A stretch of 64,000 bases of DNA from Cyanidioschyzon merolae (GCA_000091205.1 AP006492.2); one strand, 5' to 3'; positions 6,908 through 39,300 are shown, numbered from the stretch's first letter. Made by a program: numbers and translations. The notes: generated by a model not told the origin, from the sequence alone.

Positions 6908-6979
6908 ATTGTAGCTGCGGAGGCGCGCTTTTCTGTTTCGATCCGTGTTGGTAACGCGTGTGCGTATGCGTGTGTGTTT

Positions 6980-9490: not shown

Positions 9491-10203
9491 GGCCACGCTA
9501 TGTAGAACAAAGAACAGAGACTCACTACTAACTCGCAACGAGATAACAATTTCTTTTCCCCACTATGATAAATGTTAAAAGTGGGCAACGGTTTCCGCAC
9601 TGTCGAACGTTTACCTTCTCGGCGGAAGGTCCCACGAGCCAGACGAGTCTGCCGGGCTAGTGCTTCGTGCACAAGCGAGCGACGAGTTCAGTGGCGAGAC
9701 CTGAGCAGCTCGTCCGCAACGTAGTTTATTCTGGGACTAGGATCGGGTAGCCTGCGTCTGGGCGTCACTCTTGTTGCAGTGGCCTCCTAGTATATCAATT
9801 CGGATTGCCGCCTGTACTAGGTCCGTCTGCGCTGCTTGCAGGCTCCCAGAATGATTATGAATCCCAGATCCCCATCAGGTGAAGCTTTCCTCGATCCGAC
9901 GCCCTCTGTGGTTTGGCAACGCCGTTCTGCCTCCCTGCAGCATCTGCCCAGAGGTTTAGGCGCCATCGCCGATGCTCAAAGCAGGCAATCGGCACACGAT
10001 AGAACATACGAAACGACCAGTACATCCGAGAGAAAGTATAAGTAATGGAACTAGAAGACAGGGCACAGCATAATAAGTGTCTTCCCGTTTGCCTGTGACG
10101 ATCCCGCAATCTGGGATCCATGGACCATAGAGACAATGTACAACCATGAAAAATACGGCCCAAGAGGCAGCCAGCGCATCCTTTTTGACCGTTATGTACA
10201 TAA

Positions 10204-18697: not shown

Positions 18698-21286
18698 CTC
18701 CCAAAAGAAAAACGTTGTGACCGCCAGTGGTGTACAGTAGTGGCGAGTGCTCCGCCTTAGACTAGACGTCGCCAACTGACGAGCTGATGCCTTCCAGTCT
18801 TTTTCGACCGGCCACCTACAACGGCTTCCAATTTTTTCTCATATAATCCCACTTTGAGTGGTTGTCCCTTAAAATTCTCTCTTGACAGCTGTGGAGGTTT
18901 TTTCTCCATCACCGCGCATCTCCTGATATTGATGGCGGTGTTAAAATCTCGGTTCACAAACTCCATACGTTTCTCGCCATTGTTGGTACTCACCAATGCA
19001 AGCAATCCTCGAACTTTCGCCATCCTTTCCATCTGCTCCTCCGTCAGCGGTCCGTATTTTCTTATCCTCAGGGCTCCTCATGCACATTCCTACCTCCACT
19101 CTCTGAAGTAGACACCCCAGCTCATGGTGTGTATACGACGTTCGAAACTCACCTACAGGTATTGTTACAAAGCGCCTTGCGCACTCCTTATACGCACTCG
19201 TCGTTGGAGCTGGCGTAGTTCCTTTTTGGGTCTTCCAGCGCCCTGCTCCGTATGCTACTACGAGCCTCTGACTTTTTTTATCCTCCTTCAAGGCGCTCAT
19301 CTGATTGAAAACGTTCGCAAATGCCCGCTGCCTCTCTCCGTATAGACTCATACGCAGACGAGCCCACCGGGGCATGGTATACTCCTTCCACAGTGCGTCC
19401 CAATGGGCAACGCGAACTTCCATGAATTTCCGAAAAGCAGTAAAGTCCGCTCCTCAGCTCGTGATCTCCCTCATAGCTTCGAGGTGATCCTTCATTCCTG
19501 CATTCCACCTCTCATTTGTCTTCCTTGCATTCATTATATCCGATTCTAGACAGTATCTCGCTCTCGAGAACCTCAAAAGACGCATGTCTTTCTGAGGTAA
19601 GTTGCCGTCAGTACCATCATCCGCACGCTTGGGAGCAGCGATGGTTATGATATTCGTATTCCCAGGGTCCGCGCCGACGACAAAGTCGTTATCTTGCACC
19701 TCCTGCGTCGCAAGATCCGCCTCCTTCTTTTCTGCATTCTTCGCCGCGCCAACGAAAGTCGTTATCCTGCACCTCCTGTGCCGCAGGATCCGCCTCCTTC
19801 TCACATTCATGGTTCGTCACGGGCGCAGCCGAGGGCGGGACTGGACGATCTCTCTTCAACCGCCGATAGTGTATACACAAGGCTACTCCATCGGTATCGA
19901 TCATCCCAGTGAGTACCTTTTGTTTGCTCACCCTCAGACGTTTGAAATCGAAGATATTCTTCCAGAACGTCTCCCGGTTTTCACCGTAGAATTCCTCCCT
20001 GCTAACATCGAACTCCGGACTGATCTCCTTCATGATGCCATGAAGGACTGCGGAGTCGATACTCACAAAATGTGACTTGATGGTGCACATCGGAACGATG
20101 TAGAAGCGCTTACCCATCAGGAAAGCCTTCCGTCTGTCCCAGTCTTCAGTTTTCCCCACTCAGCTTCATTTCTGCCTTGCGTTCGAGTTCTCGGTCCAGA
20201 AACACGAAATAACATAGGATGAGGCGATAGTATCTTCCCTTATCTTTTTCAACGCTGATATCTTGTCTGTTGGATTCGGCAGCCCCATGACTGCACGGTG
20301 CTCTTGTATATCCGCACGGATGACGGAGACCTTATTCGTGCTCTGGTTTGACGCCTTCTTGTCGACAAATTCGACGTCATCTTCACGCTTGCGATCGTTC
20401 GTGATGCCATTGATAATCGCTGATATTCCTTTGGGACAGATGCCCGGGTAGAGTGCAAACAAGGCGCGTATCATGTAACGTTCGAGGTTCACTGTCAAAT
20501 TGTTCTTCAGGTTCGCGGTATACTTTATCGCCCCGTATATGTAAATACCCCGGTCACCGCTTTATCGATTACTCTCGAGGCGGAATTCCGCCAAGTTTTC
20601 GTGGAGGGCATGCACTGGCTCATTTTCCCCCGCGCTTACTCTGTACCAAGCATCAGCTGACGAATAAACGTCGCATCGAAAACGCCGTCCGGGAACCTCG
20701 ACCGTTTCCATGTGCGTCACTTCGCGATACATCTCCCTCGCCAAATGCATCAGTCCTGACGAGGCCTTGACAATACTCTTGGAGTACGAGTCGATACGTT
20801 TTTCGATAGCGTTTCGCTAGTGTTCCCTGTAAGGATCCTTGATATGTTTAAGAAGAAAGGTTTTCACCAGCATCTCGTTGTACGGTTGTAGTTCTTGCGG
20901 CCATCGACTTGGGATATCCCCTTTTTGCGTTTTCTTCTTATGCTGTTCTTCTGAACTCGGTACTGTTTTTTTCTTTTCTGGCAGCCAGCGACACTGGGGC
21001 GTCAGGATCGCCGACTTGCTTTTTCATAACATCCTTTTTTTGTTTTTTTTTGAAAAGAACGCTCCATCAACGCCTCTGATATAGACCGCTAAATATCACT
21101 TGGATAAACTAAATTGAGCGTTGAAACATAATTGACCTGAAAAGTGTACTCTGTTATGACTTTAACGAATATACAACTTGTAATTGAGAGCAACACGCTC
21201 AAGATCGCGATCGCGTTTCCCTTCACCAACGACATGCGCGTGGTGTCTCATACCTGCCAGATATGGAGGTGCGCGTATCGACCGCT
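18672..21286 (-). mobile_element. Fanzor/TnpB-like element, copy B
   Basis: Right end about 18672, left end at 21286, where LINE sequence starts. Over roughly 18890-21040 it is about 98-99% identical to copy C (offset +10177). Its left end differs from the left ends of A, C and D. Confidence 0.6.
18757..20871 (-). pseudogene. Fanzor1/TnpB-like nuclease ORF, copy B (multiple frame breaks)
   Basis: Fragments align colinearly to copy A: N-terminus 'MLVKTFLLKHIKDPYREH*' (in-frame TAG), RuvC-I '[18 protein letters not shown]', Cys/His cluster, RuvC-III 'MEFVNRDFNTAINIRR', then a 60-aa extension ending '...VVGGRSKKTGRHQLVSWRRLV*'. Contains an internal ~57-bp tandem duplication ('QEVQDNDF' twice) and several in-frame stops. 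Confidence 0.6.
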
Positions 21287-22570
21287 ATAATCCCTTGGCA
21301 CACGGACTCGAACTCCAAATACCCTCGACAGAAGGTATAGCAGCAGGCTGCCGGGTACGTATATGGGCCAAAGGGCCCGCCATGCGCACCTCTTTGAGTC
21401 GGATTTTCATGCAGACCCCTACGCACCTCAAGAACACTTGGACGAAATTGACGCAGATTGGGCTGAAGCGCCTATTAGACGAACATACGCTCCCCAATCG
21501 TTCCCCAGGAATGTACAAGGCTCCCGCCGCCTCAAGCGAACGGTCCAAACAACAATATGGGAACGTAGACACGGAACCAGTCGCGCCAGTAACGCCGGCT
21601 TGATCCTATACCGGAGCTACAACCTAGCATACACATGCAAGTACTGGTGGGAGGCGCTGGAATTCCCGGGACTTGCTCGAGGTACCCAGTGGCTCGCCAA
21701 AATCCGCGTTGGTGGCTTCTGGCTAGCGGCACCGGCTCTAAGCCGTATAGGGACACTGGAATCGCACTGGGAGTCACACTGTCCCTGCTATCGAGACGAT
21801 AACCCCGAGACGCTGACATATTTAGGCTTACAGTGCCCGCGCTGGAAGCAGGAGCGCAGCGAGCTCCTTGAAGGACAGCAGCAGCTGGGCATCACCATGA
21901 TATCCGAGGGCCGGACACTCACTTTGAGAGCAGCACTGGCAACTGATGGTCCGCTAACAGATCCTCAGCGCTCATTAGTGGCGAACAAACTCACATGCTA
22001 CCTTCCAAGCGGAAGGTCCAGCGGATCGGATGCGCACACGGGCCCAGTGCTCTCTGCGCCTACCTTCTGTATGGGTGTCAAACACAAACCCGCATTGCCA
22101 ACCGACGACAACGCATTCCATGCATGATCACGAAAGAGAGAGGCGGCTCCCACGATATATCCTAACAGTCAAGTTTCTCCAGCGTGTCGAGCAGCGAAGA
22201 CAAGCCTGCATCCGCAGACTGTCCGAGCACACACTGACGACGAGACCCGATTCTACGTCGGGTGAAGCGCACCTTGAGCCGACGCCCTCTGGGGTATAGA
22301 AAAGCCGTTCTGTCTCCATGATGCATCTGTACCAAAGGTAAAGACGCTATTGCGGACAATTAGGACAGGTTCTGGGCACACGATAGGACGTATGAGATGA
22401 CCAGAATATCCGAGATGAAGGATAGGTAATTTGACGTGGAGGTACGGGGGTTGATGGATACCCCACCGCGCACTGTAAAAAAATAACGCAAAAAGTAAGA
22501 AAAGAAAAATGCGCACAATCGGAGAACGCTGGCCCAAGTAAACGCGTTGTCCGTGAAAAAGGACTCATCG
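21287..22570 (+). mobile_element. Non-LTR retrotransposon (LINE) 3' fragment: C-terminal RT/zf-RVT region plus 3' UTR
   Basis: About 93% aa identity to the 3' part of the longer minus-strand LINE at 31400-35100 (ORF 21363..22127 versus 31844..32614). Starts abruptly at the copy-B left end. Its 3' UTR extends further than in the inverted copy; the exact 3' end (before 22700) was not resolved. Confidence 0.6.
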
Positions 22571-22755
22571 ATGCCGGCAGGCGTGCAGGCAATCAGGCAG
22601 GCGGCAATCTCAGCCACAGAATGCGACGGCGCGAGCGCACGTCCTTCCCGGGGCAATAAGCGGCGCCTTTCGTCCTATACGAGCGTGCTGCTGTAATTTC
22701 TGCTTTGAACCATTTTACAAGCGAGCAAGTACGAGGACACTGTTTCACGGAAACA

Positions 22756-24189
22756 ATGATAGCGTTCGTTATTAATTCTGCAACGAAGGCCGCAGTTAGC
22801 CCATTAAAAGGACAAATTTGCCGTGGTCTTCCGAAAAACCCGAGCTTTGCGGCGTCTACCTGGCTAGGGCAGGCTGCGCTCTCGACGCGGCCGCGAAGTT
22901 CGCAAGGGCGTGGGCGCTCCGGTGTTCGCGAAAGCGCAGCTACGCGCGCACGCGCTCCTGTTTGTGTTCAAACAAGTGACGTTGCTATGCGGGTCCGTTC
23001 TATTCGTGATTTGCAGGACGCTGAAATCCGCGGAAAAAGAGTGTTTGTTCGTTCTGATTTGAACGTGCCCCTTGATGGAAAGCGAATCACAGACGACACG
23101 CGGATTCGGGCGTCCGTCCCGACGATCAAGTACCTCGCAGACAAAGGAGCAAAGGTGATCGTCGTTTCGCACCTCGGGCGACCCAAGGGCGGCTTTGAGG
23201 ACAAATATTCCTTGGCGCCAGTGGCGGAACGTCTCTCGGAACTCTTGGGAAAGAAGGTTCGCATGGCAAAGGATTGTATCGGGGACGCAGTGGCGACCGA
23301 AGTAGCGGCTATGTCCCCTGGAGATGTTGTTCTTCTGGAGAACGTCCGTTTTTACCCTGAGGAAGAAAAGAACGACCCCGATTTTGCGCGCAAGCTAGCG
23401 GCGAATGCGGACCTCTACGTGAATGATGCGTTCGGAACGGCGCACCGGGCGCACGCGTCCACAGAGGGCGTTACCGCTTTTCTCAAACCCGCAGTGGCGG
23501 GATTCCTCCTCGAAAAAGAGCTGGATTATTTGTCGAACGCAATTGAGAGCCCGAAGCGTCCATTTGCCGCTATCGTTGGAGGCTCCAAGGTCAGCACGAA
23601 AATCGCTGTTTTGGAGAAACTTCTTCAAAAATGCGATACAATCATCATCGGAGGAGGCATGGTATTTACGTTTCTCCGCGCGCGCGGTCTGAAGACTGGT
23701 AGCTCGCTTGTTGAGGAAGACAAAATTGAGTTGGCACGAGTCATCGAGGAAGAAGCGCGCAAGCGGGGAATCGAGCTCCTCCTACCCCTCGATGTTGTCG
23801 TCGCCGATAAGTTCGCCAATGATGCGAATACAAAGGTCGTACCAGTGGAGGAGATTCCGGACGGATGGATGGGTCTTGATAACGGGCCAGAGACGACAAG
23901 AATGATCCAGGAGAAGCTTCGCACGATGAAGACTGTTCTTTGGAACGGGCCCCTGGGCGTTTTCGAGATGCCGAACTTTGCCAAGGGCACCTTTGCCATT
24001 GCGGAGACTCTCGCGGAGATCACTCAGAACGGCTGCATCACGATTGTGGGAGGTGGCGATTCTGTTGCCGCTATGGAGCAATCAGGTAAGGCGGACAAGG
24101 TATCGCATATCTCAACCGGTGGTGGCGCTGCGTTGGAGTTAATCGAGGGGCGGGTATTGCCAGGTGTAGCGGCGCTCCAGAGGGCGTGA
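22756..24189 (+). CDS. PGK: Phosphoglycerate kinase, plastid/cyanobacterial type, with N-terminal targeting-like presequence
   Basis: Full-length PGK. '[35 protein letters not shown]' and '[39 protein letters not shown]' follow the short-loop chloroplast/cyanobacterial form ('[37 protein letters not shown]'), not the longer cytosolic insert. About 78 aa Ser/Ala/Arg-rich presequence from the ATG at 22756. TGA stop at 24187. Confidence 0.9.
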
Positions 24190-27100
24190 TTGGTCTTTGT
24201 TTGGGACGATCTCGCTCGATGCGGGGAATCATGTCGAGTCACGAGAGTTTCCAGCAGAGCACGTCTGGTTGCACCGGAATCTCAGGATTGTCTCGAGCAC
24301 AGCGACAGGATTTTCTGCATCATTTGGATGTTGGTTCGTTTGGCGCATAAACGACTTGATGAGCAAATGCACCGTCACACCAGTATCCAAGTTAGTGTCT
24401 GACCAATCAGCAGGGACAGGAGCAAACGGGCGCGTCGTTCGTCAACCGCGTGCATCACCGGCTCTCCTCAACCGAAAACATGCATAAGCCGCAAATGCAC
24501 TATAGAATGTCTTACTGCACATTGGAATACCGTGGTTGTTCCCAAATTGCCCAGCGGAATCGTACACTTTGTCCATAAACGGTGCTCTGGCCTCGCTGGA
24601 TTGCTGAAACGTACCATATCAGTGTCTTGCGCTTGGTTGTAATCCCGTACCCTCCTTCATAATCGCTGATTTCTTTCATCGAAAGTCTTCAGAATTTGCC
24701 CACAATGCCCTCATGGAATACGAAACGATTTTCCCGAAACATCGCTCAATAGAAAGTTCTTGGACGCTCCACGAGCACAAAACGCTTCCGCATGTTAATC
24801 GCGGCGTTGAACTCAAGGAACACGAAGTGCTCGTGCGCACCGTTGCGGGTGGAATCTCATCATGGTACACTCTACGTTTTCGATTGTCTCACCATTTGAC
24901 GATAGCTCAGCATACTGCACACCATCCGATACATCCGGTTCTGTGCCACGCTGTTTTCATCGAACACTTTCAGCGCACAAGTGTGCTATTGATGTGTTTT
25001 TGCCATCCTGACATATCGATGGGATTCGTATCGAATCGATTCCAGCACTTTTTCTCGTTAGCGTCGAGGAGGCAGGGTTGCTGCATTTGGGCACCGCAGC
25101 TCGTTCGGCGTCCTAGACTAGCACGAAACGACGCTACTTTCCAACCCAATGAACAAGTAAGAAAGTGCGCGTTACATTCTGCCACATAACCTGGTTCATC
25201 TCCGACTCCAGCGCTCACTCATTTCCTCCCGCAAAAAGCCTTCGCTTGAACCATTTGGATGCTCGTGTTCTTTCTGATTGAGGCGTACAAAGCACAACGT
25301 CCTGCTCGATGTGGTACTCATTGCATCGAGCTGGGTCCCGAAGCTGCCACCTCACGTGTTCGTATGGCGCCTGGTATCCATCATATTCGACTGTCGAAGA
25401 CGTCGAGCCGTGGGAAAGTAAGGATGTATTGAAAGCCTGTCTCGAGCATCATTTCCGTTGTCTCAAGAAAAACTGGATCGGAACTGTTCCGGAGAATTGT
25501 GGACAGCTGGCAGCCGTGTGTCCGAAACGCCTACGAGCATTTGCTTGTTGAGGGACGTTACAGCGAAATATGCTTGGGGGGCATCCCTCGAGTAAGAGGG
25601 AACGCGATCCCTGCCAGTGCCCCGCTTCTCATGTTTGAGAGGATTCCCGCGATTGATACGTTTTCAGACGGAGACCTTGCCAAGGATTTCAGACCGATTT
25701 TTCCATTCCAACTCTTTGCGCTCTTTGTGTGTCCTCGCCTCTTTTTGAAACAATTATCCCCATCTTAGGCTGGTGGGTTCTTCCGCTCCTCCGTTACTTG
25801 GTGGAGTATCATGTATGTAGTCGCGATGCTCCATATTCGTTTTCGCGTGATTTAGAGGTACAGGCTCTACGATGCCATTAAAGCTGACGTTTTCTGCCTA
25901 CGTTGCTATTAGTTCTTCGATAAAGTTTGGCTATCTGTTGCGCTGCGAGCTCGCTGATGGACAGAGAGGTGCCCTTCGGTTCGCTCCCGCGCAACAGAAG
26001 AGGAGCAACGCAGCAGTTCACTACTTGTGACATCACAGAACGACTAGTCGAAGGACGAATGTGCGCGCTTCAGCGTCGCAGATGCGAACGATTCTTTTAT
26101 GTATCTGTGTGCGTAAGCATTGCATCGGACAACAAGGAGGACGCCTCTGACTGGAATCAGCCCGGGGCAAATGGATGGCATGATGCGCAGCTCAACACAC
26201 GTTTCAGCTGCATTCTTGTTGAAGGCTTTTGAGCAACAAAGTGCGAATTCGTCTGACAGCAGGACAGAAAATTTTGTGGAAAAGAAGCCGCGAAGACTGC
26301 TTCATTGAAGAATGAGATAACGAATGATTACGATCGGTCAGCGTTTTGCAGACGAACGCACTATAGGATTGCCGCTAGAGCTGGTGTTGTCTGAATGCTC
26401 GCCCACGTTTTCTTTACGAACAGCGGTCTGCTTATCTTTTTGGCATCAATGTACATTTCTACCATTTTTCTTGAATACAAACGTATCCTTTGCGATGCAC
26501 ACATGGCCCTGATGTGATGAAGATTCGCGTTTTGTTAAAAACGCGATAGTATGTTGTCCAACGCGCGACGGTCCCGCATAGAGGCTTTGGTTTTCCTTAG
26601 TTCTTCCGCGTCGCTTTACTGCCGGTCCCATCATCGATACGGAAACATCAAATTCCGGAGATTTTTGGTATATTTTTCATTGAATTCGCATGGAGCGGAA
26701 CATATTGACGAAGAGGAAGTGGTGCAGATAGTGTTTTATGAATTATGTTTTGGTTGAATGCGGTTCGGGATATTGACCACGAGAAGGCCTGTCCATCCAG
26801 ATGCTGACTACATAGTAACTGACTCGCTCTTGTAAGGTCGTTTGTTGGCGGGCTAGTTGTGACTACATTGGGTCTTTCTGCATCCTCTATCGCGTTTATG
26901 ATACACATTCCTTCTGTTCAATTTCTGCGACAGAAACAAACGAAAACAAAAAAGCCTCACAGACTTGGATATTCCAGAAATCAGTGCTCCGAGCATCGGG
27001 CATCGACGAACAGAGGCATTGCGGCGTGCATCAGTCGTGGTTACTGCACACAAGCCCTCAGGTTCCAGTTGGATTATTTTGTCTGATGCGCAGAAGCAGC

Positions 27101-27371
27101 TGGTTTCAGCTGTATCCTGGAAACAAGTACTTCTGTCGTAGAAGACTTCCACAGAAAGAAGGAGCGAGAAGTGCTAGCCGCCTGGATCCGTCAGTGCTCC
27201 AAACAGTGTCGCCCATCACGTCGTGCGTTGTCCACAAAAACTCCGCCCATTCCTCGTTTACGAAGCCATTGGGCGCTTCCCGCAAAACGAAGGGATTTTT
27301 CTCAATGCCGCGACCAATGAAAAAGCGTTTTTCAATTGGGTAGCTTTTTACAAGAGTTACGGAGATCTCGT

Positions 27372-28820
27372 TCAACAATCCGACCTCGGATTCTGCGCTT
27401 CTCTGACAGGCAGTTGTAAACGAGCGCTACTCCACTCGTACCGCAAAACCTGGTCGTATGTTTGGTGAAGAGCGGCCTCGCGTATCCATCGGTAGGTTTC
27501 AGCACAACCTGTGCCGCAGGCCAGATCCAAAAGCTGTTTAACCTGCTCCACACTGTACGCCCGACAATCAAGCCCCTTAGTGCTGCCGTCATCCAGAGCC
27601 ATATTTCGATAATCCACCCAAAGTAGCTGCACACCGTGCTCCAAACTGGAGCCAGCGTGCGGATCTCGAAAATCAACGATCCGCTGTGGAACGGGTTGGA
27701 ATGACTCGCCAGCAAGCACTGCGACTGTGACCTCCGGTACGACAGCTCCAAAGGCTGCCTGCCAAATGCGGGCCTGCTGCAGCTCCCAGTTGGAGGGATC
27801 CGCCGCCGCGACAAAGCGTCGGGCTCCGGAGCCTAGCTCCTCGGTCGGGAGTGCAACTGCGCTGCACGCGACAATAAGATCACGAAGCGGTACAGCGGCA
27901 TGTAGCAGCGCTAGGCTCACAGCGTTCACGGCAACGGCAAATTCGCTGCCATCGCTCTGGAGTACTTGGACGAATATGTCGACCTGAGCATGCGATGGCA
28001 TGTACCGAGAGGACCCTGCGCTATTGGCATCGCTTCCTACCAGTATAGCGGGTTCGAACACCTCGCGAATATGCTCTGCTGCTTCGCGGGACTTTTGGCG
28101 GAATTTGCTGCTCGCGACAATGCCTGGCAACCGGAAAGACCGCTCCGTCTGCGCTTCGTGTGGAGCCGCCTCTGTGCGACCTATTCGGAGAGCTCCATTC
28201 TTTTCATCGTGACTATCCATTGTACTGGTTCGCATGATGGCTGTGCCCGCATACCTGTTCTGTTGTCGACGCCTGTAGGCACGCAGGGTTCGCACCGAGC
28301 TCGCTGCCCCAGCGAAGGACGCTGTGCTGTACTCGCAGTGCACCCGGCCGTGTGCTGTTGCTGGTGGTAGCAGCTTGAGAGCAGTTGCGGGCGATTCGTT
28401 GCCTGGAGCGTTACTGATAGCTGAATCAGAGTGATCCGACTCCACCGTGTCAATGTTGAGAGCCGTCTCCATATCGGAGTCGATGCTGGAGTCGTCCGAT
28501 TCGGCGAAAACTGCACCTGCAACCGCTTGGGCTGGCCTAGCGGCGTGTGTCTCCGGGACGACTGGCGCTTGATACTCGGAAACCGCAGTGCGAAGTGCGT
28601 CATTGATCAGTGCTCGGGTGCTTGGTATACTCAAAGCTCCTTTTTTTGTTTCATAGGGGCCGTAGACAGCTACAAGCACCCGGGTTTGTCCTTGTTCTAC
28701 GAGAACACTCCCGTCGGCGCCCGGAACCACCCCAAGCTGTGCAGAAATGCTCCTTACTTCATCTGGTTTCCGTCCGTCAACACGCAGTCCATCAAGACTC
28801 AGTAGATCTTGGGGTTTCAT
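27372..28820 (-). CDS. Exosome RNase PH-like subunit (Rrp41/Rrp46 family) with a large low-complexity insertion
   Basis: ATG at 28820. N-terminal 'LRVDGRKPDEVRSISAQLGVVPGADGSVLVEQGQTRVLVAVYGPYE' and later 'HAQVDIFVQVLQSDGSEFAVAVNAVSLALLHAAVPLRDLIVACSAV' are the two RNase PH domain halves, separated by a ~190-aa Ser/Ala-rich insert. Confidence 0.6.
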   Translation of the reverse strand: MKPQDLLSLDGLRVDGRKPDEVRSISAQLGVVPGADGSVLVEQGQTRVLVAVYGPYETKKGALSIPSTRALINDALRTAVSEYQAPVVPETHAARPAQAVAGAVFAESDDSSIDSDMETALNIDTVESDHSDSAISNAPGNESPATALKLLPPATAHGRVHCEYSTASFAGAASSVRTLRAYRRRQQNRYAGTAIMRTSTMDSHDEKNGALRIGRTEAAPHEAQTERSFRLPGIVASSKFRQKSREAAEHIREVFEPAILVGSDANSAGSSRYMPSHAQVDIFVQVLQSDGSEFAVAVNAVSLALLHAAVPLRDLIVACSAVALPTEELGSGARRFVAAADPSNWELQQARIWQAAFGAVVPEVTVAVLAGESFQPVPQRIVDFRDPHAGSSLEHGVQLLWVDYRNMALDDGSTKGLDCRAYSVEQVKQLLDLACGTGCAETYRWIREAALHQTYDQVLRYEWSSARLQLPVREAQNPRSDC

Positions 28821-28849
28821 AGCGTCTTACGCAGAGCTCGAAACGCTCC

Positions 28850-31400
28850 TCCGCGGCACCCCACGCAACGCGCCAACAACGCCGTTCTGAACTCGAACGA
28901 CGTCGAACGTGTACTGTATTGGCGACCAGTGCTCTAGACAAGAAGTCTCCAACTGATGTGCAGAGACCTCTCAGTTTTCTTGGACCGGCCACCTACTACG
29001 GCTTCCAACCTTTTCTCATATAATTCCACTTTGAGCGGTTGTCCCTTAAAATTCTCTCTTGTCAGCTGTGGAGGTTTTTTCTCCATCACCGCGCATCTCC
29101 TGATATTGATGGCGGTGTTAAAATCTCGGTTCACAAACTCCATACGTTTCTCGCCATTGTTGGTACTCACCAATGCAAGCAATCCTCGAACTTTCGCCAT
29201 CCTTTCCATCTGCTCCTCCGTCAGCGGTCCGTATTTTTTTATCCTCAGGGCTCCTCATGCACATTCCTACCTCCACTCTCTGAAGTAGACACCCCAGCTC
29301 ATGGTGTGTATACGACGTTCGAAACTCACCTACAGGTATTGTTACAAAGCGCCTTGCGCACTCCTTATACGCACTCGTCGTTGGAGCTGGCGTAGTTCCT
29401 TTTTGGGTCTTCCAGCGCCCTGCTCCGTATGCTACTACGAGCCTCTGACTTTTTTTATCCTCCTTCAAGGCGCTCATCTGATTGAAAACGTTCGCAAATG
29501 CCCGCTGCCTCTCTCCGTATAGACTCATACGCAGACGAGCCCACCGGGGCATGGTATACTCCTTCCACAGTGCGTCCCAATGGGCAACGCGAACTTCCAT
29601 GAATTTCCGAAAAGCAGTAAAGTCCGCTCCTCAGCTCGTGATCTCCCTCATAGCTTCGAGGTGATCCTTCATTCCTGCATTCCACCTCTCATTTGTCTTC
29701 CTTGCATTCATTATATCCGATTCTAGACAGTATCTCGCTCTCGAGAACCTCAAAAGACGCATGTCTTTCTGAGGTAAGTTGCCGTCAGTACCATCATCCG
29801 CACGCTTGGGAGCAGCGATGGTTATGATATTCGTATTCCCAGGGACCGCGCCGACGACAAAGTCGTTATCTTGCACTTTCGGGGTCACAGGACCCGCCTC
29901 CTTCTTTTCTGCATTCTTCGCCGCGCCAACGAAAGTCGTTATCCTGCACCTCCTGTGCCGCAGGATCCGCCTCCTTCTCACATTCATGGTTCGTCACGGG
30001 CGCAGCCGAGGGCGGGACTGGACGATCTCTCTTCAACCGCCGATAGTGTATACACAAGGCTACTCCATCGGTATCGATCATCCCAGTGAGTACCTTTTGT
30101 TTGCTCACCCTCAGACGTTTGAAATCGAAGATATTCTTCCAGAACGTCTCCCGGTTTTCACCGTAGAATTCCTCCCTGCTAACATCGAACTCCGGACTGA
30201 TCTCCTTCATGATGCCATGAAGGACTGCGGAGTCGATACTCACAAAATGTGACTTGATGGTGCACATCGGAACGATGTAGAAGCGCTTACCCATCAGGAA
30301 AGCCTTCCGTCTGTCCCAGTCTTCAGTTTTCCCCACTCAGCTTCATTTCTGCCTTGCGTTCGAGTTCTCGGTCCAGAAACACGAAATAACATAGGATGAG
30401 GCGATAGTATCTTCCCTTATCTTTTTCAACGCTGATATCTTGTCTGTTGGATTCGGCAGCCCCATGACTGCACGGTGCTCTTGTATATCCGCACGGATGA
30501 CGGAGACCTTATTCGTGCTCTGGTTTGACGCCTTCTTGTCGACAAATTCGACGTCATCTTCACGCTTGCGATCGTTCGTGATGCCATTGATAATCGCTGA
30601 TATTCCTTTGGGACAGATGCCCGGGTAGAGTGCAAACAAGGCGCGTATCATGTAACGTTCGAGGTTCACTGTCAAATTGTTCTTCAGGTTCGCGGTATAC
30701 TTTATCGCCCCGTATATGTAAATACCCCGGTCACCGCTTTATCGATTACTCTCGAGGCGGAATTCCGCCAAGTTTTCGTGGAGGGCATGCACTGGCTCAT
30801 TTTCCCCCGCGCTTACTCTGTACCAAGCATCAGCTGACGAATAAACGTCGCATCGAAAACGCCGTCCGGGAACCTCGACCGTTTCCATGTGCGTCACTTC
30901 GCGATACATCTCCCTCGCCAAATGCATCAGTCCTGACGAGGCCTTGACAATACTCTTGGAGTACGAGTCGATACGTTTTTCGATAGCGTTTCGCTAGTGT
31001 TCCCTGTAAGGATCCTTGATATGTTTAAGAAGAAAGGTTTTCACCAGCATCTCGTTGTACGGTTGTAGTTCTTGCGGCCATCGACTTGGAATATCCCCTT
31101 TTTGCGTTTTCTTCTTATGCTGTTCTTCTGAACTCGGTACTGTTTTTTTTCTTTTCTGGCAGCCAGCGACACTGGGGCGTCAGGATCGCCGACTTGCTTT
31201 TTCATAACTTCCTTTTTAAGTTTTTATAAATCAGCCCTCCGTGAACGCTTCTGTTATATACTGAGAAAAACAATCGAATATTTTCACTTGAGGGTTGAAA
31301 CACAATCGAACTGAAAACTATACATGCCTATGAAGTTAACAAAAATACAACTTTGACATTAGAGCTACATGCTAGATATCAAGATCACGTTTCCCTTTAA
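28850..31400 (-). mobile_element. Fanzor/TnpB-like element, copy C
   Basis: Near-identical to copy B over about 29067-31217. Its left end is about 55 nt shorter than in A and B and abuts the 3' UTR of the minus-strand LINE at about 31400. The right end lies about 30 bp upstream of the exosome-subunit ATG. Confidence 0.6.
28934..31048 (-). pseudogene. Fanzor1/TnpB-like nuclease ORF, copy C (frame breaks; RuvC-I Asp replaced)
   Basis: Same fragment set as copy B. RuvC-I reads '[15 protein letters not shown]' (Asp to Val). RuvC-III 'NRDFNTAINI' is retained. C-terminal extension '...RSKKTERSLHISWRLLV*'. Confidence 0.6.
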
Positions 31401-34400
31401 CGGCGGCATGTTTTTCATTAACAACGCGTTTACTTGGGCCAGCGTTCTCCGATTGTGCGCATTTTTCTTTTCTTACTTTTTGCGTTATTTTTTTACAGTG
31501 CGCGGTGGGGTATCCATCAACCCCCGTACCTCCACGTCACATTACCTATACTTCATCTCGGATATTCTGGTCATCTCATACGTCCTATCGTGTGCCCAGA
31601 ACCTGTCCTAATTGTCCGCAATAGCGTCTTTACCTTTGGTACAGATGCATCATGGAGACAGAACGGCTTTTCTATACCACAAAGGGCGTCGGCTCAAGGT
31701 GCGCTTCACCCGACGTAGAATCGGGTCTCGTTGTCAGTGTGTGCTCGGACAGTCTGCGGATGCAGGCTTGTCTTCGCTGCTCGACACGCTGGAGAAACTT
31801 GACTGTTAGGATATATCGTGGGAGCCGCCTCTCTCTTTCGAGATCATGCATGGAATGCGTTGTCGTCGGTTGGCAATGCGGGTTTGTGTTTGACACCCAT
31901 ACAGAAGGTAGGCGCAGAGAGCACTGGGCCCGTGTGCGCATCCGATCCGCTGGACCTTCCGCCTAGAAGGTAGCACGTGAGTTTGTTCGCCACTAATGAG
32001 CGCTGAGGCTCCGTTAGCGGACCATCAGTTGCCAGTGCTGCTCTCAAAGTGAGTGTCCGGCCCTCGGCTATCACGGTGATGCTCAGCTGCTGCTGTCCTG
32101 CAAGGAGCTCGCTGCGCTCCTGCTTCGAGCGCGGGCACTGTAAGCCTAAATATGTCAGCGTCTCCGGGTTATCGTTTCCGCAGCAGGAACAGTGTGACTC
32201 CCAGTGCGATTCCAGTGTCCCTATACGGCTTAGAGCCCGTGCTGGTAGCCAGAAGCCACCAACGCGGATTTTCGCGAGCCACTGGGTACCTCGAGCAAGC
32301 CCCGGAAATTCCAGCACCTCCCACCAGTACTTGCATGTGTATGCTAGGTTGTAGTTCCGGTATAGAGTCAAGCCGGCGTTACTGGCGCGACTGGTTCCGT
32401 GTCTACGTTCCCATATTGTTGTTTGGACCGTTCGCTTGAGGCGGCGGGAGCCTTGTACATTCCTGGGGATCGATTGGGGAGCGTGTTGTCTCCTAAGAGG
32501 CGCTTCAGCCCAATCTGCGTCGATTTCATCCAAGTGTTCTTGCGGTGCGTTCGGGTCTGCATGAAAATCCGACTCAAAGAGGTGCGCGTGGCGGGCCCTT
32601 TGGCCCGTATACATGCCCGGCAGCCTGCTGCTATCGCTTCTATTGAGAGTATTTGGAGTTCAAGTCCGAGTGCCAGCGCGGTGGTTGCCCTGCTCTGCAT
32701 TGAGCATCCAACAACAACGAGTCTCATTGCCCCGTTGGCGGCTGTCTGCGGACGCGAGGCATTTGTGTGCTTCATGCCGCACCACTCAGCACCCCAGGTC
32801 GCAGGCTGGGTGATACACATCCTTAGTGCCCTCGTACGAATTGCTATGCGGATAGAGGGGTCGGATGGGAATGAGCGTGCGATCGCTGTACCTCTATGCA
32901 TCTTGGCGATCATCTCGTCGACGTGTGCCTTTTCGTCGAGCGTCGGCGTGAGACCGACCCCCAGGTAGCGATATTTTTCCACGATCGGGATTTCCGGATT
33001 CTGCAACCGCCACGAGCGATTGCGAATGCTCTGCGAGTCTCCATGGATGACCATGACGCCGCACTTCGATGCTCCTATGCTCATCTCCCAGCGATCGGCC
33101 CAGTCGCTGACTTGTTGCATGCTAGCCGCAAGCGTTTCAGGGGCGGGTGCCAACAGCACGACATCGTCCGCAACTAGACGGCCTGCGAGGCGGTTCCTAT
33201 GTGAGGGCTCCTCATCGGGCATCTCCACAGTCTATCCACGGCACCTCAAGCCCGTATTGTCTGCAGTTGTTCAGCAGATCGTTGATGAAGATGTTGAAAA
33301 GGAGCGGGGATGCGCGCTCGCCCTGCCGCAGTCCACGGCGGATTCTTCTGGAAGGGGTTCTTGAGCTGTCGCCCAGTCGGATGCGCATCCATGAGTCTGC
33401 ATAGAGCGCACGGAAGAACGCTAAGCACTTTCCGGAGACTCCGGCGCGTTCCATCTTCAGAAATGGAGCCTCGTGCGGGACCGTGTCAAAGGCCTTTTGA
33501 AAGTCAATGAAGCATACGTAAGTTGGTTGTTGGCCGCTAATGGAGCGACGTTGCACCACTTCAGTTAGGGTCAGGACATGGCTCATGCACTCCTCGTGGC
33601 TCCGGAATCCAGCCTGTTCTGGGGCGAAGAACTTGCGTTCCTGGAGGCCTCTCTGGATCCGGTTCGTGGGAATGGCGCAAAGTAGCTTCATGATTGACGG
33701 GATGAGGCGCATAGAGCGGTAGTTGTTCATGTCTGTGTGGGAGTCCTTTTTGAGGATCGGTACGACCTCAGCAGTCCTCCATACATCCGGGATGTACGCC
33801 TCTTCGAACATGCGTTGGATGAGCTCCACAAGGCGTTTGCCTAAGCTTGTGTCAGATTCATCTGGTATTGATGGTGTCCCTGTTGTCCCGTCTTTTGGGG
33901 TCACCAGTTTCATCCACTCCGCAGGGATACCGTCGATGCCAGGTGTTTTGCGGTTGCATGACCTTAAGAGGGTCCGGACAGATTCAGGCCAGAAGATTGG
34001 GTCGTTCCATTCCGGTACCGATTCGAGGCGCGGTAGTTCTGCGGCATACTGGTGCCAATAGATTGGGTCTTGGCAGTGCCCAGTTGCTTCTTCATGCAGC
34101 TCTGTGCCGTGGTCCGTCCAGGCCTCATTCACTGAGGCACGCTCCGTCCTCAGCGCTTCCTCATAAACGATTGGTGTGAGCCCCAGGCACTTTTTTGGTG
34201 GGTCCAGTCTCGGTCGAATGTAGCGCCAGGTCTCATCTTCGTTGGTGCTCTCTAGCATAGATTTCGCCAGGGAGGCGATTTCGCGGTTTCGATCCTCTCG
34301 TTTGTCTTCTCTGGAAAGTTTCTTCTTTCTTTTGATAGCTTCTTCATGTTGCGCCTGTAGCGCCGTTAGGACTGCCTTCGCTTCCTTGTCTCCGGCGTTG

Positions 34401-35100
34401 ACGCGTATGGCGGTGTGGTTGACGATCTGATAGAGTCGGTGGCGCTCGTCAATCCGGGTATTGGTACGTCGTTTCAGGCACTGAGGTTTGCAACTGTTGC
34501 GTTCTGGTGCAAGCAGTCCCAGCTCTCCGGCAATCTTCTGATTCCCATCTACAAACTCGCGTGCCAATTGGTCTAAAGATTTGTATGCACGGCTTTTCGG
34601 ATCTTCAGCGCTGTGAGTAGGTGACTTGGTTTGGCGACGGCTTTCTTGAGTTCCTGCTGGGGTGCTCTTTCGGGGACGACTTGTGATGGGCTCGCTGGAG
34701 CCCCCGCCTGTGGGCTCGTTCGGGAGTTCTTCTTTCTATTCTTCTGTTTTTCTCTTGCTGGTTTGCTTCTTCATCGGGCTCTTTCCTGAGCTACATTCTC
34801 TGGTTACTTTGCATCTAGGTGGATCATGAGGTTTCTGTGTCTCCTTCTCCGTGTCTGGTTGGGTCTCTTTTCCTTTTGTACAGTCCTCGACTTGTATCAG
34901 TTCTTCATTACTGTACTGGTAATTCGATATCTCGTAGTTCAATACCGAGGCGATCCCACAAATATTCCATGATGCGAAACCTATCGAGTCGTAGCGCATA
35001 AGGGAATAGGAGTAACGCTGCGGTACTCGAGAGATACGTTGTCGATTGAGATGCACCCTCCACGGAGTGTGTGAGAGCACATGCCACCAGCGCCTCCTAC
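31400..35100 (-). mobile_element. Non-LTR retrotransposon (LINE), longer copy, lacking most of the endonuclease domain
   Basis: Minus-strand ORFs 33212..34567 and 32368..33228 carry reverse-transcriptase motifs. ORF 31844..32614 carries a zf-RVT-like 'HWESHCSCCGNDNPETLTYLGLQCP'. Near 34970 there is an APE-like remnant ('FASWNICGIAS') with no following endonuclease domain. Its 3' UTR (about 31400-31843) is the inverted repeat of 22128-22570. Confidence 0.6.
31844..34567 (-). pseudogene. LINE ORF2-like reverse transcriptase (frameshifted into three pieces)
   Basis: RT blocks: 'YRSMRLIPSIMKLL', 'PEQAGFRSHEECMSHVL', 'CFIDFQKAFDTVPHE', 'GLRQGERASPLLFNIFINDL' and a YxDD-like region; C-terminal zf-RVT. 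Reading-frame breaks at 33212-33228 and 32368-32614. Confidence 0.55.
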
Positions 35101-36379
35101 ATTCCAGTCGTTCACTGAGTGTCTGCCGCAGCGCTAGCGTAGAATCAGATGTACGCTAGTCAAGGTCGATTCAAATGCGACCTTTATATTGCCCGACGCT
35201 TTAACCTCCCCTCAACAATTGGGAACAGTCTGCAAACCACCCTTTCAGCGGCTACGTATCCGCTCCCCAAACACATAGGCGGGCAAGCCGCTTATTCCAG
35301 CTTCGACCGCAAACATACTGCCAGCCGTCTTCCAAAGTATCCGCCGAAATTGTTCCCAAAGTTGAGGTAGGTACCCAAGGTAGGAGATAAAACTGAGCCC
35401 GAGTCCGAGGATCGATCCAAGATTTGCGCCCGAACCTGCAGCGTTGATTCGGGAGGGGCGGATGACTAATCAGGATTTTCGTCAACATTTTCTGGTGCTA
35501 CTGCCGCCGCCCCTCCGTTCGTTGCGCGGTCAAGGTCCCTGGCGTGGGCTTCCTTCGCCGTCGCCCAAGCACCCCGCGTTAACCCACTTTCAGAGCTTCT
35601 CCGGAAAAACTAGACCTTTAAGGCGGGCGTGGTGTGTGGGTCTTTAAGATAGTTGTTCTTTAATAAATAGTTTGCGACTAGTTTGTTTTGTTGTTTTTTT
35701 TTTGTTTTTTTCCGCACGACGATTTCTCTTTTTTGGTTACGAAGAACGTTCCATACACCACCGCCGTGCGATCATGGCGGCGTTTCATTGGTTGCGGATT
35801 GAACCGCCTCCGCGTCGTTGCACCATTCGATTCGAAACGTAGGGCATACGCGACGCCTGTTCCCGTCGGATGGGGACGTGTCGCCGGGCCGGTGCGGGTA
35901 CCGCCCCGGGGATGTCGGCACCCAGACCCCGCGAACGGGGACGCAGGAGCAGTTCCCTCGAGCGGCCCCGCGAAATCAACAGACGACCATCGATGCGTAA
36001 TACGTGGCGTAAATCAGGTATGCAACCGATCGAAAGGATACCAAGTTACGACGGCGACGGTTTATTCACTGACGCCTTCTCCAGACCTTGGCGTTTTCCT
36101 GCTTCAATCCAGTTTAGACAGGGCGTTAGAGTTTTCACGGAGGGAACCTCGTCTATTCGGACCAGTCTGCTCTCTTTTTGGAGGGACAGGTCAAGATCCA
36201 GCGTTTTCCTGGCGTGTTGTGTTTGGGAGTGCGGAGCGCTTTCTGCTTGTGCAGTGGACGAAAGCGGCTTTTGGTTGTCTCGTCACTTTGGACGCTACTG
36301 GAGAATAGAAGTCACTCGCTGTCTTCTACAGCTAGGAAACGCACTTATGTGATTTTATATTTCACTTAATAGGCAAATA

Positions 36380-39300
36380 ATGCGACCGAATATGCAACGA
36401 TTATGGAATATTTTTGCTCTCGGGCTTGTGCTGTTCCTTCTTGCGAGACTTTCGCAGACGCTTTTAATAACAACCGTGAGGGACGGTGAAGCTGAGGCTA
36501 TAAAACGTTCCGCTGCTCGCCATGAGCTATGGGATGATTGTTCTCCGTTCAGGCGCATAGAGGGTTCTTGGGCGCGGAGATGGCGAAGTGTCGTTTTCCA
36601 TAGGGAAACTTGCGCTCGCTTCCGTGTGACGGACAGAGAACTGGTGAGCGTCGACGGGGAATCTGACAGCTGCGGCATTTCAGGAGTATGCGTTAGCCCA
36701 TCCACCGAACTCGAACGATGGTCTCAACTACCGGGGAAGAGAGTAGCGGGACACGGGGAAGTGTTGCGTTTCTCGAACGTTCCAACGCACTGGAAAAGAA
36801 TGGACTGTGTCCACGGCTCGCTGAAAGGCAACAGCATTCCCGTTAACGTAGAAAACGGGAAATATTGTATTTTACCCGATGGACAGGGGTTCAACGTGTT
36901 ATCGCCTGCCGCGGAAATCGAGCGGAGTGAAAGTCCTGCGGAAACAGCCGCGGACGAACTGGGATCTCATGAAGGTACTTATTCATGCCAGCCTGCCAGG
37001 CAGGTTGTGGAACCATGCTCTCCCGAAAGAAGGAGACTGGTAAAGGAAGCTTCGGGAGTAAGCAAGACTCTAGGCAGCTGCTTTTCGACCTGGCGGTCCT
37101 GGCGGTCCTGGTGGTCCTGGCAGTTCAGGTACCCCTGGTAGTTCGGATGGTGCCGGGGGTCCCGGAGGCGGTGGCCCCGGAGGCGGTGGCCCCGGAGGCG
37201 GTGGCCCTGGTGGCGGTGGCCCTGGTGGCGGTGGCCCTGGTGGCGGTGGCCCTGGTGGCGGTGGCCCTGGTGGCGGAGGTCCCGCTTCAGCTTCCGCTTC
37301 AGCTTCCGCTTCAGCTTCCGCTTCAGCAAGTGCATCGTACTCGCTGAGCTACTACGACTCGAGGAGCGCCTCAGCCTCAGCCTCAGCCTCAGCCTCAGCC
37401 TCAGCCTCCGCGTCGGCGTCGGCTAGCGCATCGTACTCGCTGAGCTACTATGACTCGAAGAGCGCTTCAGCCTCGGCGTCAGAGTCAGCCTCAGGCTCAG
37501 CCTCGGCAAGTGCCTCTTACTCGCTGAGCTACTATGACTCGAAGAGCGCATCAGTGTCGGCATCAGCCTCGGCGTCAGCCTCTGCGTCATCTTCGGCAAG
37601 TGCGTCGTACTCGCTGAGCTTTTATGATTCAAAGAGTGCTTCAGCCTCAGCATCATCTTCGGCAAGTGCGTCGTACTCGCTGAGCTACTATGACTCGAAG
37701 AGCGCTTCAGCCTCGGCGTCAGCCTCAGCATCATCTTCAGCGAGTGCGTCGTACTCGCTGAGCTACTATGACTCAAAGAGCGCTTCGGCCTCAGCATCAT
37801 ATTCGGCAAGTGCCTCGTATTCGCTGAGCTACTATGACTCGAAGAGCGCTTCGGCCTCAGCATCATCTTCGGCGTCGTCATCAGCCTCGGCGTCCGCAAG
37901 TGCATCCTACTCGCTGAGCTACTATGACTCGAAGAGCGCATCAGTGTCGGCATCAGCCTCCGCGTCTGCTTCAGCATCATATTCGGCAAGTGCCTTGTAC
38001 TCGCTGAGCTTTTATGATTCGAAGAGCGCTTCGGCGTCTGCGTCAGCTTCGGCGTCGTCATCAGCCTCGGCGTCCGCAAGTGCATCGTACTCGCTGAGCT
38101 ACTATGACTCGAAGAGCGCATCAGTGTCGGCGTCAGCCTCCGCGTCTGCTTCAGCATCATATTCGGCAAGTGCCTCGTACTCGCTGAGCTTTTATGATTC
38201 GAAGAGCGCTTCGGCGTCTGCGTCAGCTTCGGCAAGTGCGTCGTACTCGCTGAGCTACTATGACTCGAAGAGCGCTTCGGCCTCAGCATCATCTTCGGCA
38301 AGTGCGTCGTACTCGCTGAGCTACTATGACTCGAAGAGCGCTTCAGCCTCGGCGTCAGCCTCAGCATCATCTTCAGCGAGTGCGTCATACTCGCTGAGCT
38401 ACTATGACTCAAAGAGCGCTTCAGCCTCGGCGTCAGCCTCAGCATCATCTTCGGCAAGTGCGTCGTACTCGCTGAGCTACTATGACTCGAAGAGCGCTTC
38501 AGTGTCGGCGTCTGCTTCGGCGTCGTCATCAGCCTCGGCGTCCGCAAGTGCATCCTACTCGCTGAGCTACTATGACTCGAAGAGCGCATCAGTGTCGGCG
38601 TCAGCCTCCGCGTCTGCTTCAGCATCATCTTCGGCAAGTGCCTCGTACTCGCTGAGCTTTTATGATTCGAAGAGCGCTTCAGTGTCGGCGTCTGCTTCGG
38701 CGTCGTCGTCAGCCTCGGCGTCAGCAAGTGCATCGTATTCGCTGAGCTACTATGACTCTAAGAGTGCTTCAGCCTCGGCGTCAGCCTCAGCATCGTCTTC
38801 AGCAAGTGCGTCGTACTCGCTGAGCTACTATGACTCGAAGAGCGCTTCAGCCTCGGCGTCAGCCTCTGCATCATATTCGGCAAGTGCCTCTTACTCGCTG
38901 AGCTACTATGACTCGAAGAGCGCTTCAGGCTCGGCGTCAGCCTCAGCATCATCTTCGGCGAGTGCGTCGTACTCGCTGAGCTACTATGACTCGAAGAGCG
39001 CTTCAGGCTCGGCGTCAGCCTCAGCATCATCTTCAGCGAGTGCGTCGTACTCGCTGAGCTACTATGACTCAAAGAGCGCTTCGGCGTCAGCATCATCTTC
39101 GGCAAGTGCGTCGTATTCGCTGAGCTACTATGACTCGAAGAGCGCTTCGGCGTCTGCGTCAGCTTCGGCGTCGTCATCAGCCTCGGCGTCCGCAAGTGCA
39201 TCGTACTCGCTGAGCTACTATGACTCAAAGAGCGCATCAGTGTCGGCGTCAGCCTCCGCGTCTGCTTCAGCATCATATTCGGCAAGTGCCTCGTACTCGC

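Follow-up and report, generated by a model that had tools for sequence, protein, structure and literature searches.

The 64,000-nucleotide (nt) segment described here, from the genome of the red alga Cyanidioschyzon merolae (GCA_000091205.1 AP006492.2; the window) contains four copies of a Fanzor1 element, each with its gene on the minus strand, and two copies of a long interspersed nuclear element (LINE), P and M, that lie in opposite orientations on either side of two housekeeping genes. Genes are densely packed in this genome, and introns are nearly absent. It contains 26 class I and 8 class II elements, the class I elements all being of the type without long terminal repeats (non-LTR), and 253 copies of a 3.2 kb repeat with a WSV486-like open reading frame (ORF), which make up ~5% of the genome (PMC1955436). 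Bao and Jurka described this repeat as the Fanzor1 family CMe-1A, a ~3 kb element of unknown class with no terminal inverted repeats (TIRs) and no determinable target-site duplications (TSDs), of which the 5′ 635 bp is a separate element, TE-N2_CMe (PMC3627910). The copy number of the Fanzor unit is given as 150-253, with no transposase (PMC3627910, PMC1955436). The features of the window that concern the Fanzor copies, the LINEs and the genes between them are as follows.

6986-9501, minus strand: Fanzor1 copy A, with RuvC-like motifs DPGSTN, DEFRTS and NRDFNAAINI
9502-10182, plus strand: 'N2-like' short retroelement at the left end of copy A, in head-to-head arrangement; its 3′ part has 73-76% similarity to the LINE 3′ untranslated region (UTR) and ends in ATGAAAAA
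18672-21289, minus strand: Fanzor1 (CMe-1A family) copy B, a decayed gene with an intact left (5′) end and its terminus at ~21289
21290-21295, no strand: filler ATCCCT, 6 nt, between the Fanzor B left terminus and the truncated 5′ end of P
21296-22560, plus strand: LINE copy P, a 5′-truncated 3′ fragment (1265 nt) with a C-terminal ORF remnant, 3′ UTR and natural GAAAAA end; left arm of the inverted repeat
22756-24189, plus strand: phosphoglycerate kinase (PGK) gene with an N-terminal extension; exact protein match BAM80396.1
27372-28820, minus strand: RNase PH-domain (exosome-type) gene; exact protein match BAM80397.1
28872-31410, minus strand: Fanzor1 copy C, left end short by ~52 nt and abutting the A-tail of LINE M, right end ~55 nt upstream of the RNase PH ATG
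31411-35685, minus strand: LINE copy M, a frameshifted, full-length element of 4275 nt with the annotation 'retroelement, alive'; the right arm is its 3′ 1265 nt (31411-32675)
60654-62830, minus strand: Fanzor1 copy D, left end degenerate
63451-63699, plus strand: weak remnant (65% identity) of an N2-like element, flanking copy D on its left-end side and oriented as at copy A

The inverted repeat has arms of 1265 nt each, 21296-22560 (+) and 31411-32675 (−), separated by a spacer of 8850 nt in this strain (C. merolae 10D). There are 58 differences between P and M in an ungapped comparison of the arms (95.4% identity), and the repeat is real and far beyond chance. A preliminary description of this DNA had reported inverted LINE pieces of ~1.3 kb and ~95% identity around PGK, an exosome subunit and a Fanzor copy, and all of this is borne out, although each arm end falls 9-10 nt short of the coordinates given there. 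The LINE assignment agrees with the 'retroelement, alive' annotation and with a match of M to RVT_1 (33212-34567 (−) at 1.2e-18, with a continuation at 32368-33228 (−)), and the enclosed segment does contain PGK, the RNase_PH gene and Fanzor copy C. About 3.2 kb between PGK and RNase PH is without an annotated gene; the corresponding space in Cyanidiococcus is only ~0.7 kb. There is also weak dispersed similarity (65-68%) between parts of this region (24579-24926 and ~26307-26431) and the start of the window (2019-2371 and 3740-3867). As first stated the finding is ordinary, being two copies of a known retroelement that face each other around two housekeeping genes. The part that merits genome-wide follow-up is the recurrent joint between the Fanzor left end and the LINE, together with the apparent lack of an endonuclease in the LINE.

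The two LINE copies differ in their 5′ ends and agree in their 3′ ends. M carries the reverse transcriptase (RT) domain of a non-LTR LINE, and since its 5′ terminus, AACTAGTCRCAAAY, is shared with the metagenome copy L016 (M 5′ end AACTAGTCGCAAAC...), M is full length. P is 5′-truncated at −1265, which is a truncation of the usual kind for LINEs, and there are 195 nt between its natural 3′ end and the PGK start codon downstream. Both P and M stop at the identical LINE nucleotide, ..GCGTTGTnnnTGAAAAA, and the same terminus followed by 5-9 A residues is present in an independent LINE in L017, in two fragments in L027, in the related tail next to copy A, and in L019. The fixed A-rich 3′ terminus (..TTGTnnATGAAAAA(n) in P, M, L017 and the two L027 copies) is combined with variable 5′ truncation, and the shared end is the natural 3′ terminus of the family. 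The 3′ UTR of M had been described as cut short, but M ends at the terminus common to P and to the independent copies.

No TSDs were found at P (flanks ..CGCTATAATCCCT and GGACTCATCG..) or at M, and the tails of old Fanzor plus N2 composites are too decayed to judge. Likewise, no Pfam match to a nuclease domain was found in M, L016, P0054, P0061 or the C-terminal ORF, an APE domain being expected upstream of the RT or a REL domain C-terminal to it. Upstream of the RT in M, L016, P0052, P0054 and P0061 there is just a 'FASWNICG' motif followed by a K/E-rich linker (34567-35100 on the minus strand of the window; 2650-3640 in L016). This vestigial motif sits where an APE endonuclease would start. 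More distant homologues of the LINE carry Exo_endo_phos domains. Exact look-ups of the C-terminal ORFs of P and M, and of a second 10D retroelement protein (P0049), matched no record.

On the Fanzor side, nine aligned left ends have a common boundary, ..GGTGCGCGTATCGRSCRCGCTAT. Copy B meets it (at ~21289), A, L016, L018, L019, L021, L022 and L027 also reach it, and copy C ends 52 nt before it, precisely at the A-tail of M. The missing 52 nt are not at the 5′ end of M, where a clean insertion would have left them, or elsewhere in the window. The preliminary description had P starting at the copy-B left end, and P does begin 6 nt past the point where B stops resembling the other copies; the truncation of both partners claimed for that junction is not seen, since B extends to the family-wide boundary and only the LINE is truncated, at its 5′ end. 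The claimed loss at the copy-C left end is confirmed (the last ~52 nt are gone), and the junction sequence quoted for it is correct. Comparison with the ends of other copies thus separates two truncated partners, the left end of Fanzor C and the 5′ end of P, from the natural ends, which are those of both LINEs on the 3′ side and that of Fanzor B on the left.

The junctions are not artefacts of the reference assembly, as they are also seen in metagenome contigs from closely related strains (98.7-99.6% identical): that of C with M in L001, that of B with P in L002, and that of P with the PGK flank in L003, L013 and L014. A metagenome scan with a 21-mer from the LINE 3′ end matched four contigs. 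L016 was found through the LINE and the other left-end copies through the Fanzor protein, and because the two search routes differ the association is not a search artefact.

A LINE-type sequence abuts the left end in all nine Fanzor copies in which that end is readable. The junction is at the same few nucleotides in seven of these, it is less sharply placed in L021, and in copy C it is at −52. The arrangements, with that of the decayed copy D, are as follows.

A, L018, L021, L022 and L027: N2-like element of ~0.6 kb, head-to-head, its 3′ part 73-76% like the LINE 3′ UTR, forming with the Fanzor a 3.2 kb unit
L016: 5′ end of a full-length LINE, head-to-head
B: 5′-truncated LINE P, head-to-head
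L019: LINE/N2-type element in reverse orientation, its A-tail exactly on the terminus
C: LINE M in reverse orientation, 52 nt in from the left terminus
D: left end decayed, a weak N2-like remnant lying on the same side

The junctions in B, L016 and L019 and the N2 joint all lie within ~3 nt of one left-end position, that of C being at −52. A random end would fall ≤5 nt from one of 253 left ends in 16.5 Mb with a chance of ~2e-4 (copy number and genome size from PMC1955436). These appear to represent independent insertions at one position, as expected of a target-specific LINE, with at most ~4-5 independent events. A single orientation and a sequence-specific endonuclease, which such elements also have, are not seen here: B, L016 and the N2 copies are head-to-head, L019 and C are tail-to-head, and no endonuclease was detected in the LINE. 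In a distance tree of the left-end-proximal 1.1 kb, the copies without N2 (B, C, L016 and L019) form a derived clade among the N2-bearing copies. The LINE parts are 92-95% alike (P and L016 95%, P and M 95%), in contrast to ~80% for the Fanzor bodies (B and L016 80%). The LINE parts are therefore younger than the Fanzor bodies that they adjoin, which favours later, separate arrivals of LINEs at existing Fanzor ends.

The N2-like element is probably TE-N2_CMe, an identification made from the published description and not from the Repbase consensus. Copy A and its N2-like piece span 6986-10182, or 3.2 kb, which is the size of the unit in the literature. We note that this ~0.6 kb non-autonomous element is found both fused to Fanzor left ends and as solo copies (9502-10182 in the window; 7633-8131 in L017; 4611-4918, 14278-14862 and 19515-19637 in L027). 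An origin as an internally deleted LINE was considered and rejected, as its 5′ ~370 nt are without similarity to the LINE 5′ region.

Searches of Pfam, NCBIfam, PHROGs and PDB with single Fanzor sequences gave nothing significant. A profile built from 47 relatives within the family matches solved Fanzor1 structures (9cf0 from Parasitella at 3e-17, 8gkh from Spizellomyces at 3.2e-10, and 9cer from Guillardia at 4e-5). An AlphaFold model of the family member P0338, built from a deeper family alignment and representing a relative of the window copies rather than the decayed copies themselves, has a pLDDT of 85.4, and SpuFz, PpFz and GtFz account for its top seven Foldseek matches (E values of 4e-17 to 1e-15; TM-scores of 0.53-0.62 normalised to the query and 0.55-0.72 normalised to the target). 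The family is homologous to Fanzor1 in both sequence and fold. The RuvC D/E/D residues are kept in copy A, L020 and L021 within GxDPGxTN, DEFRTS and NRDFNAAxNI, and copies B, C and D in the window are probably inactive because of frameshifts. A 794-aa ORF beside the L022 Fanzor fragment was considered as a further Fanzor and rejected.

At the opposite end of the element, the last ~130 nt of the Fanzor right end are conserved across diverged copies (18672-18800, 28872-29000, 6986-7110 and 60654-60780). Short inverted repeats are present there (e.g. GACGTCT..AGACG and GGCGG..CGCC), and this is the expected place for a predicted omega RNA scaffold. In A, B, C, L018, L019 and L021, six copies whose right (3′) end is readable, this end lies upstream of a co-oriented host gene (~6905-6990, ~18700-18780 and 28820-28880 in the window; ~10070-10160 in L018, ~10260-10380 in L019, and ~9980-10430 in L021). 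The host ATG is ~50-120 nt from the right end in five of them, the exception being L021 with a gap of ~450 nt; in copy D, where the host gene has the same orientation too, it is ~515 nt away. L027 differs in orientation, with the downstream gene on the opposite strand from the Fanzor. The proximity of right ends to gene starts suggests either targeted insertion into 5′ leaders or selection for position.

Comparison with related genomes bears on the history of the segment. In Cyanidiococcus (L012) the order is a MAGE-domain gene (+), GT92 (−), PGK (+) and RNase PH (−), with the same order and orientation as in the window and no Fanzor or LINE between them, and the GT92, PGK and RNase PH arrangement is identical in an uncultured metagenome relative (L011). 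Because gene order and orientation in the window are those of the sister genus, the reference represents the ancestral order and is not inverted, and the repeats are lineage-specific insertions. Synteny with Cyanidiococcus yangmingshanensis stops right after the RNase PH gene (window from 28820 onward, L012 from 13570 onward), and the remaining 28 kb of the window has no equivalent of the next three Cyanidiococcus genes (encoding a GTPase, a HEAT-repeat protein and a peptidase A22B). From this comparison it is likely that one of the lineages underwent a rearrangement in or close to the cluster of Fanzor C and LINE M, which fits the missing 52 nt; a deletion or rearrangement accompanying the insertion of M is plausible.

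There is clear indication of ectopic recombination, and it is between Fanzor B and Fanzor C only, not between the LINE arms. These two copies are direct repeats 10.2 kb apart flanking PGK and RNase PH, and they share a tract with 10 mismatches in 2087 nt (18886-20972 and 29063-31149; 99.5% identity) that includes exact runs of 1196 and 606 nt. Outside the tract, identity is 55-90% on the right-end sides and 69-84% on the left-end sides. The tract is the result of recent ectopic gene conversion between two old copies. That B and C are recent transposition copies of each other was rejected, as near-identity is confined to the central 2.1 kb, and the sequences at the two ends are old and divergent. 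The C copy of the L001 strain has the tract sequence in common. A tandem-duplicated 67-nt unit (73-nt spacing) is present in B at 19682-19821 and in C at 29859-29998, and seven of the ten tract mismatches cluster there. The tract shows that these repeats do recombine, which has a bearing on how stable the genome is near essential genes. The P and M arms are without a recently homogenised tract.

Two metagenome contigs have structures that differ from the reference. In L001, on the side away from the C and M junction, LINE sequence of M type covers 445 nt upstream of the arm and the first ~210 nt of the arm itself (100% identity with M, 89% with P), after which the arm is of P type and leads into PGK. 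An inversion would produce such a linkage, but a short-read misjoin is just as likely as a crossover, as the switch falls inside 21502-21603, a 102-nt run of identity between P and M. L002 (ERZ27247235 k141_406791) was considered as a structural variant, in which Fanzor C has a complete left end and then a LINE on the plus strand, and rejected as proof of one: its length of 10,169 nt is close to the 10,177-nt spacing of B and C, and its hybrid Fanzor is C-type on the right and B-type on the left, with the switch in the near-identical tract. It starts at window position 22241 and ends at 22230, and is effectively a circle with the spacing of the B and C repeats. L002 is probably an assembly loop, the alternative being an unequal-crossover product or an excised circle. 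Inversion of the housekeeping segment, as had been proposed, would be possible only in principle, through the 1.27 kb arms; the reference order is the ancestral one.

Our interpretation, which we regard as probable, is that the arms derive from two separate, oppositely oriented insertions of a young non-LTR LINE family, each of which adjoins a Fanzor1 copy older than itself at the left (5′) boundary, so that the inverted repeat would be a by-product of two LINE insertions and in itself no pointer to rearrangement. P is joined through its truncated 5′ end and 6 filler nt to the intact left terminus of Fanzor B, and in M the natural 3′ end with its A-tail makes the joint, 52 nt in from the left terminus of Fanzor C. 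The junctions are better explained by retrotransposition to a favoured Fanzor boundary than by recombination that left scars. The left-end terminus would then be a recurrent attachment point for LINE-type cDNA, with reverse transcription primed from a DNA end at the Fanzor left boundary, or cDNA end-joined to it. Priming at a break is suggested by the lack of a detected endonuclease domain and of TSDs at P and M. Priming from a 3′-OH on the Fanzor side would give a tail-to-head retroelement, as at copy C and L019, and priming on the flanking side, with joining of the cDNA 5′ end to the Fanzor terminus, would give a head-to-head one, as at B, L016 and the N2-type copies. One break would explain both orientations.

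Several points weigh against this interpretation. The sample is small, with nine Fanzor left ends, mostly from hot-spring Cyanidiales metagenomes. The N2-less copies B, C, L016 and L019 are one clade, so their junctions may not be fully independent, and the five N2-bearing copies have one ancestral junction and were counted as one event. There may be an unsampled master copy of the LINE that bears an endonuclease. The association of the elements is observed, but the break at the left end, its cause, the mechanism of joining and the direction of events are deduced, and Fanzor DNA could instead have joined LINE ends that already existed or were being formed. Truncation at the 3′ end is frequent in the known endonuclease-independent L1 insertions, whereas the LINE 3′ ends here are intact. 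Finally, the loss of 52 nt from copy C and the break in synteny past M do require a deletion or rearrangement alongside the insertion.

The preliminary description had suggested that the junctions are scars of deletion or ectopic recombination between repeats and that the segment from PGK to RNase PH could invert; on this view the segment would exist, now or formerly, in both orientations. The missing piece of the C left end, which is nowhere else in the window, is in keeping with this, as are the absence of TSDs at P and M, the Cyanidiococcus genes past RNase PH that lack a counterpart in the window, the sign of ectopic recombination at work in the 2.1 kb over which B and C show conversion, and the L001 contig, with its switch from M to P and its link to PGK. 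However, the 3′ ends of the LINEs are natural termini, as is the Fanzor B left end, the same type of junction is present at unrelated loci, the reference has the ancestral order, the L001 switch lies in a 102-nt identical run and L002 is of the reference type at this junction, and no recently homogenised tract is shared by P and M. The deletion and recombination that it invoked probably do have a place at this locus, in the loss of 52 nt from C, the stop in synteny and the B and C tract, but the natural ends and the recurrent junction oppose their being the origin of the joints, and we consider that explanation unlikely. Chance clustering is less probable still. It supposes that in a compact genome insertions survive only in or beside repeats, so that LINEs come to adjoin Fanzor copies without targeting, which would accord with the gene density, with the position of all four window Fanzor copies in short intergenic gaps by gene starts, and with the solo N2 and LINE-tail fragments away from any Fanzor in L017 and L027. 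Tolerated insertions would, however, spread over the 2.6 kb Fanzor body and its flanks, and three junction types (B, L016 and L019) and the N2 joint are instead within ~3 nt, with a fifth 52 nt away.

The joints could alternatively be internal to a composite retroelement in which the Fanzor is the antisense cargo of a LINE-dependent retroposon. The LINE reverse transcriptase would copy an RNA that reads from the right end of the Fanzor across its left end and on into the 3′ tail of an N2 or LINE, and the fusion of the left end to the LINE might have arisen by template switching, as in U6-L1 chimeras. A simple point in its favour is that the joint of Fanzor and N2 is kept in five copies with both halves similarly diverged (70-75%), and another is the literature unit of ~3-3.2 kb, with TE-N2_CMe as its 5′ 635 bp, no TIRs, TSDs or transposase, and 150-253 copies (PMC3627910, PMC1955436). 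L022 retains just the N2, the left end and ~960 nt of Fanzor, which would be a 5′ truncation in the retroelement sense, and L016 has a Fanzor with a full-length LINE. It fits poorly with the LINE parts of B and L016, which are far younger than the adjoining Fanzor (95% identity against 80%), with the lack of a shared tail in B and C, with the reversed retroelements in L019 and C, and with the right-end terminus, which is sharp and conserved and not ragged; we give it little weight. As a further alternative, excised Fanzor DNA may have been end-joined to LINE cDNA.

A broader proposal, which we put forward tentatively and regard as doubtful, is that the Fanzor1 life cycle is coupled to an endonuclease-less LINE. 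Left-end breaks made by the Fanzor nuclease or by transposition chemistry might serve as entry points for LINE and N2 elements, or the Fanzor might travel as antisense cargo of a LINE-tailed RNA. If true, either version would mean that a retrotransposon and an RNA-guided nuclease element of OMEGA type are functional partners; according to a 2026 review, evidence of retrotransposons encoding Fanzor is so far lacking (PMC13565253). The fixed joint at the Fanzor end is a testable handle on two questions, how a transposase-less Fanzor1 spread to 253 copies in so small a genome and of what use the Fanzor nuclease is to its element in eukaryotes. C. merolae is genetically tractable by homologous recombination.

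Two other features of the window deserve mention. Just past the 5′ end of M there is a large imperfect tandem-repeat array (37283-42372, units ~75-82% identical) within an 1842-aa open frame (37554-43082, +). To the right of this is a protein mannosyltransferase gene (58442-60139; exact protein match BAM80406.1) with near-identical paralogues on other chromosomes of C. merolae, BAM80644, BAM81152 and BAM82295, in the same 90%-identity cluster. Protein mannosyltransferase is listed in the shared subtelomeric blocks of C. merolae (PMC1955436), and from this listing and the paralogues the window is probably near a chromosome end.

The arrangement has parallels in several known systems. The LINE arms are like those of L1- or IS-mediated rearrangements, inversion between inverted dispersed repeats being a known process, in that they are 1.27 kb long, 95% identical, inverted and 8.85 kb apart, and unlike them in that the one verified orientation, that of the reference, is ancestral. 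The second parallel is with endonuclease-independent LINE-1 insertion, which Sen et al. reportedly described in 2007 at pre-existing DNA breaks. Here too there is no TSD, target sequence is lost (52 nt or more at copy C) and insertion is at a DNA end. Those insertions, however, occur rarely, as by-products of an element that does have an endonuclease, and the 3′ end is often missing from them, whereas in C. merolae the whole family apparently lacks the domain and has intact 3′ ends, and the breaks would be tied to one transposon boundary. The third is with target-specific LINEs such as R2, or Tx1L, which was reportedly found by Garrett, Knutzon and Carroll in 1989 at a fixed site of the Tx1D DNA transposon in Xenopus. 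As in those cases, a non-LTR retrotransposon is repeatedly present at one position of another mobile element and gives rise to composite units, but those elements have one orientation and a sequence-specific endonuclease, in contrast to the two orientations and no detected endonuclease here. The closest likeness is in the same organism, where CMe-1A and TE-N2_CMe (PMC3627910; the 253-copy 3.2 kb repeat of PMC1955436) form a ~3 kb unit with a decayed TnpB-like ORF and no TIRs or recognisable TSDs, and where in both cases a separate element of ~0.6 kb is on the 5′ side of the Fanzor gene. In the earlier papers (PMC3627910, PMC1955436) the class of the element was unknown and TE-N2 and the left end were not connected to a LINE family, whereas here the 5′ partner has a LINE-like tail. 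Moreover, N2 is replaced by a true LINE in B, C and L016, and by a reverse LINE/N2-type tail in L019.

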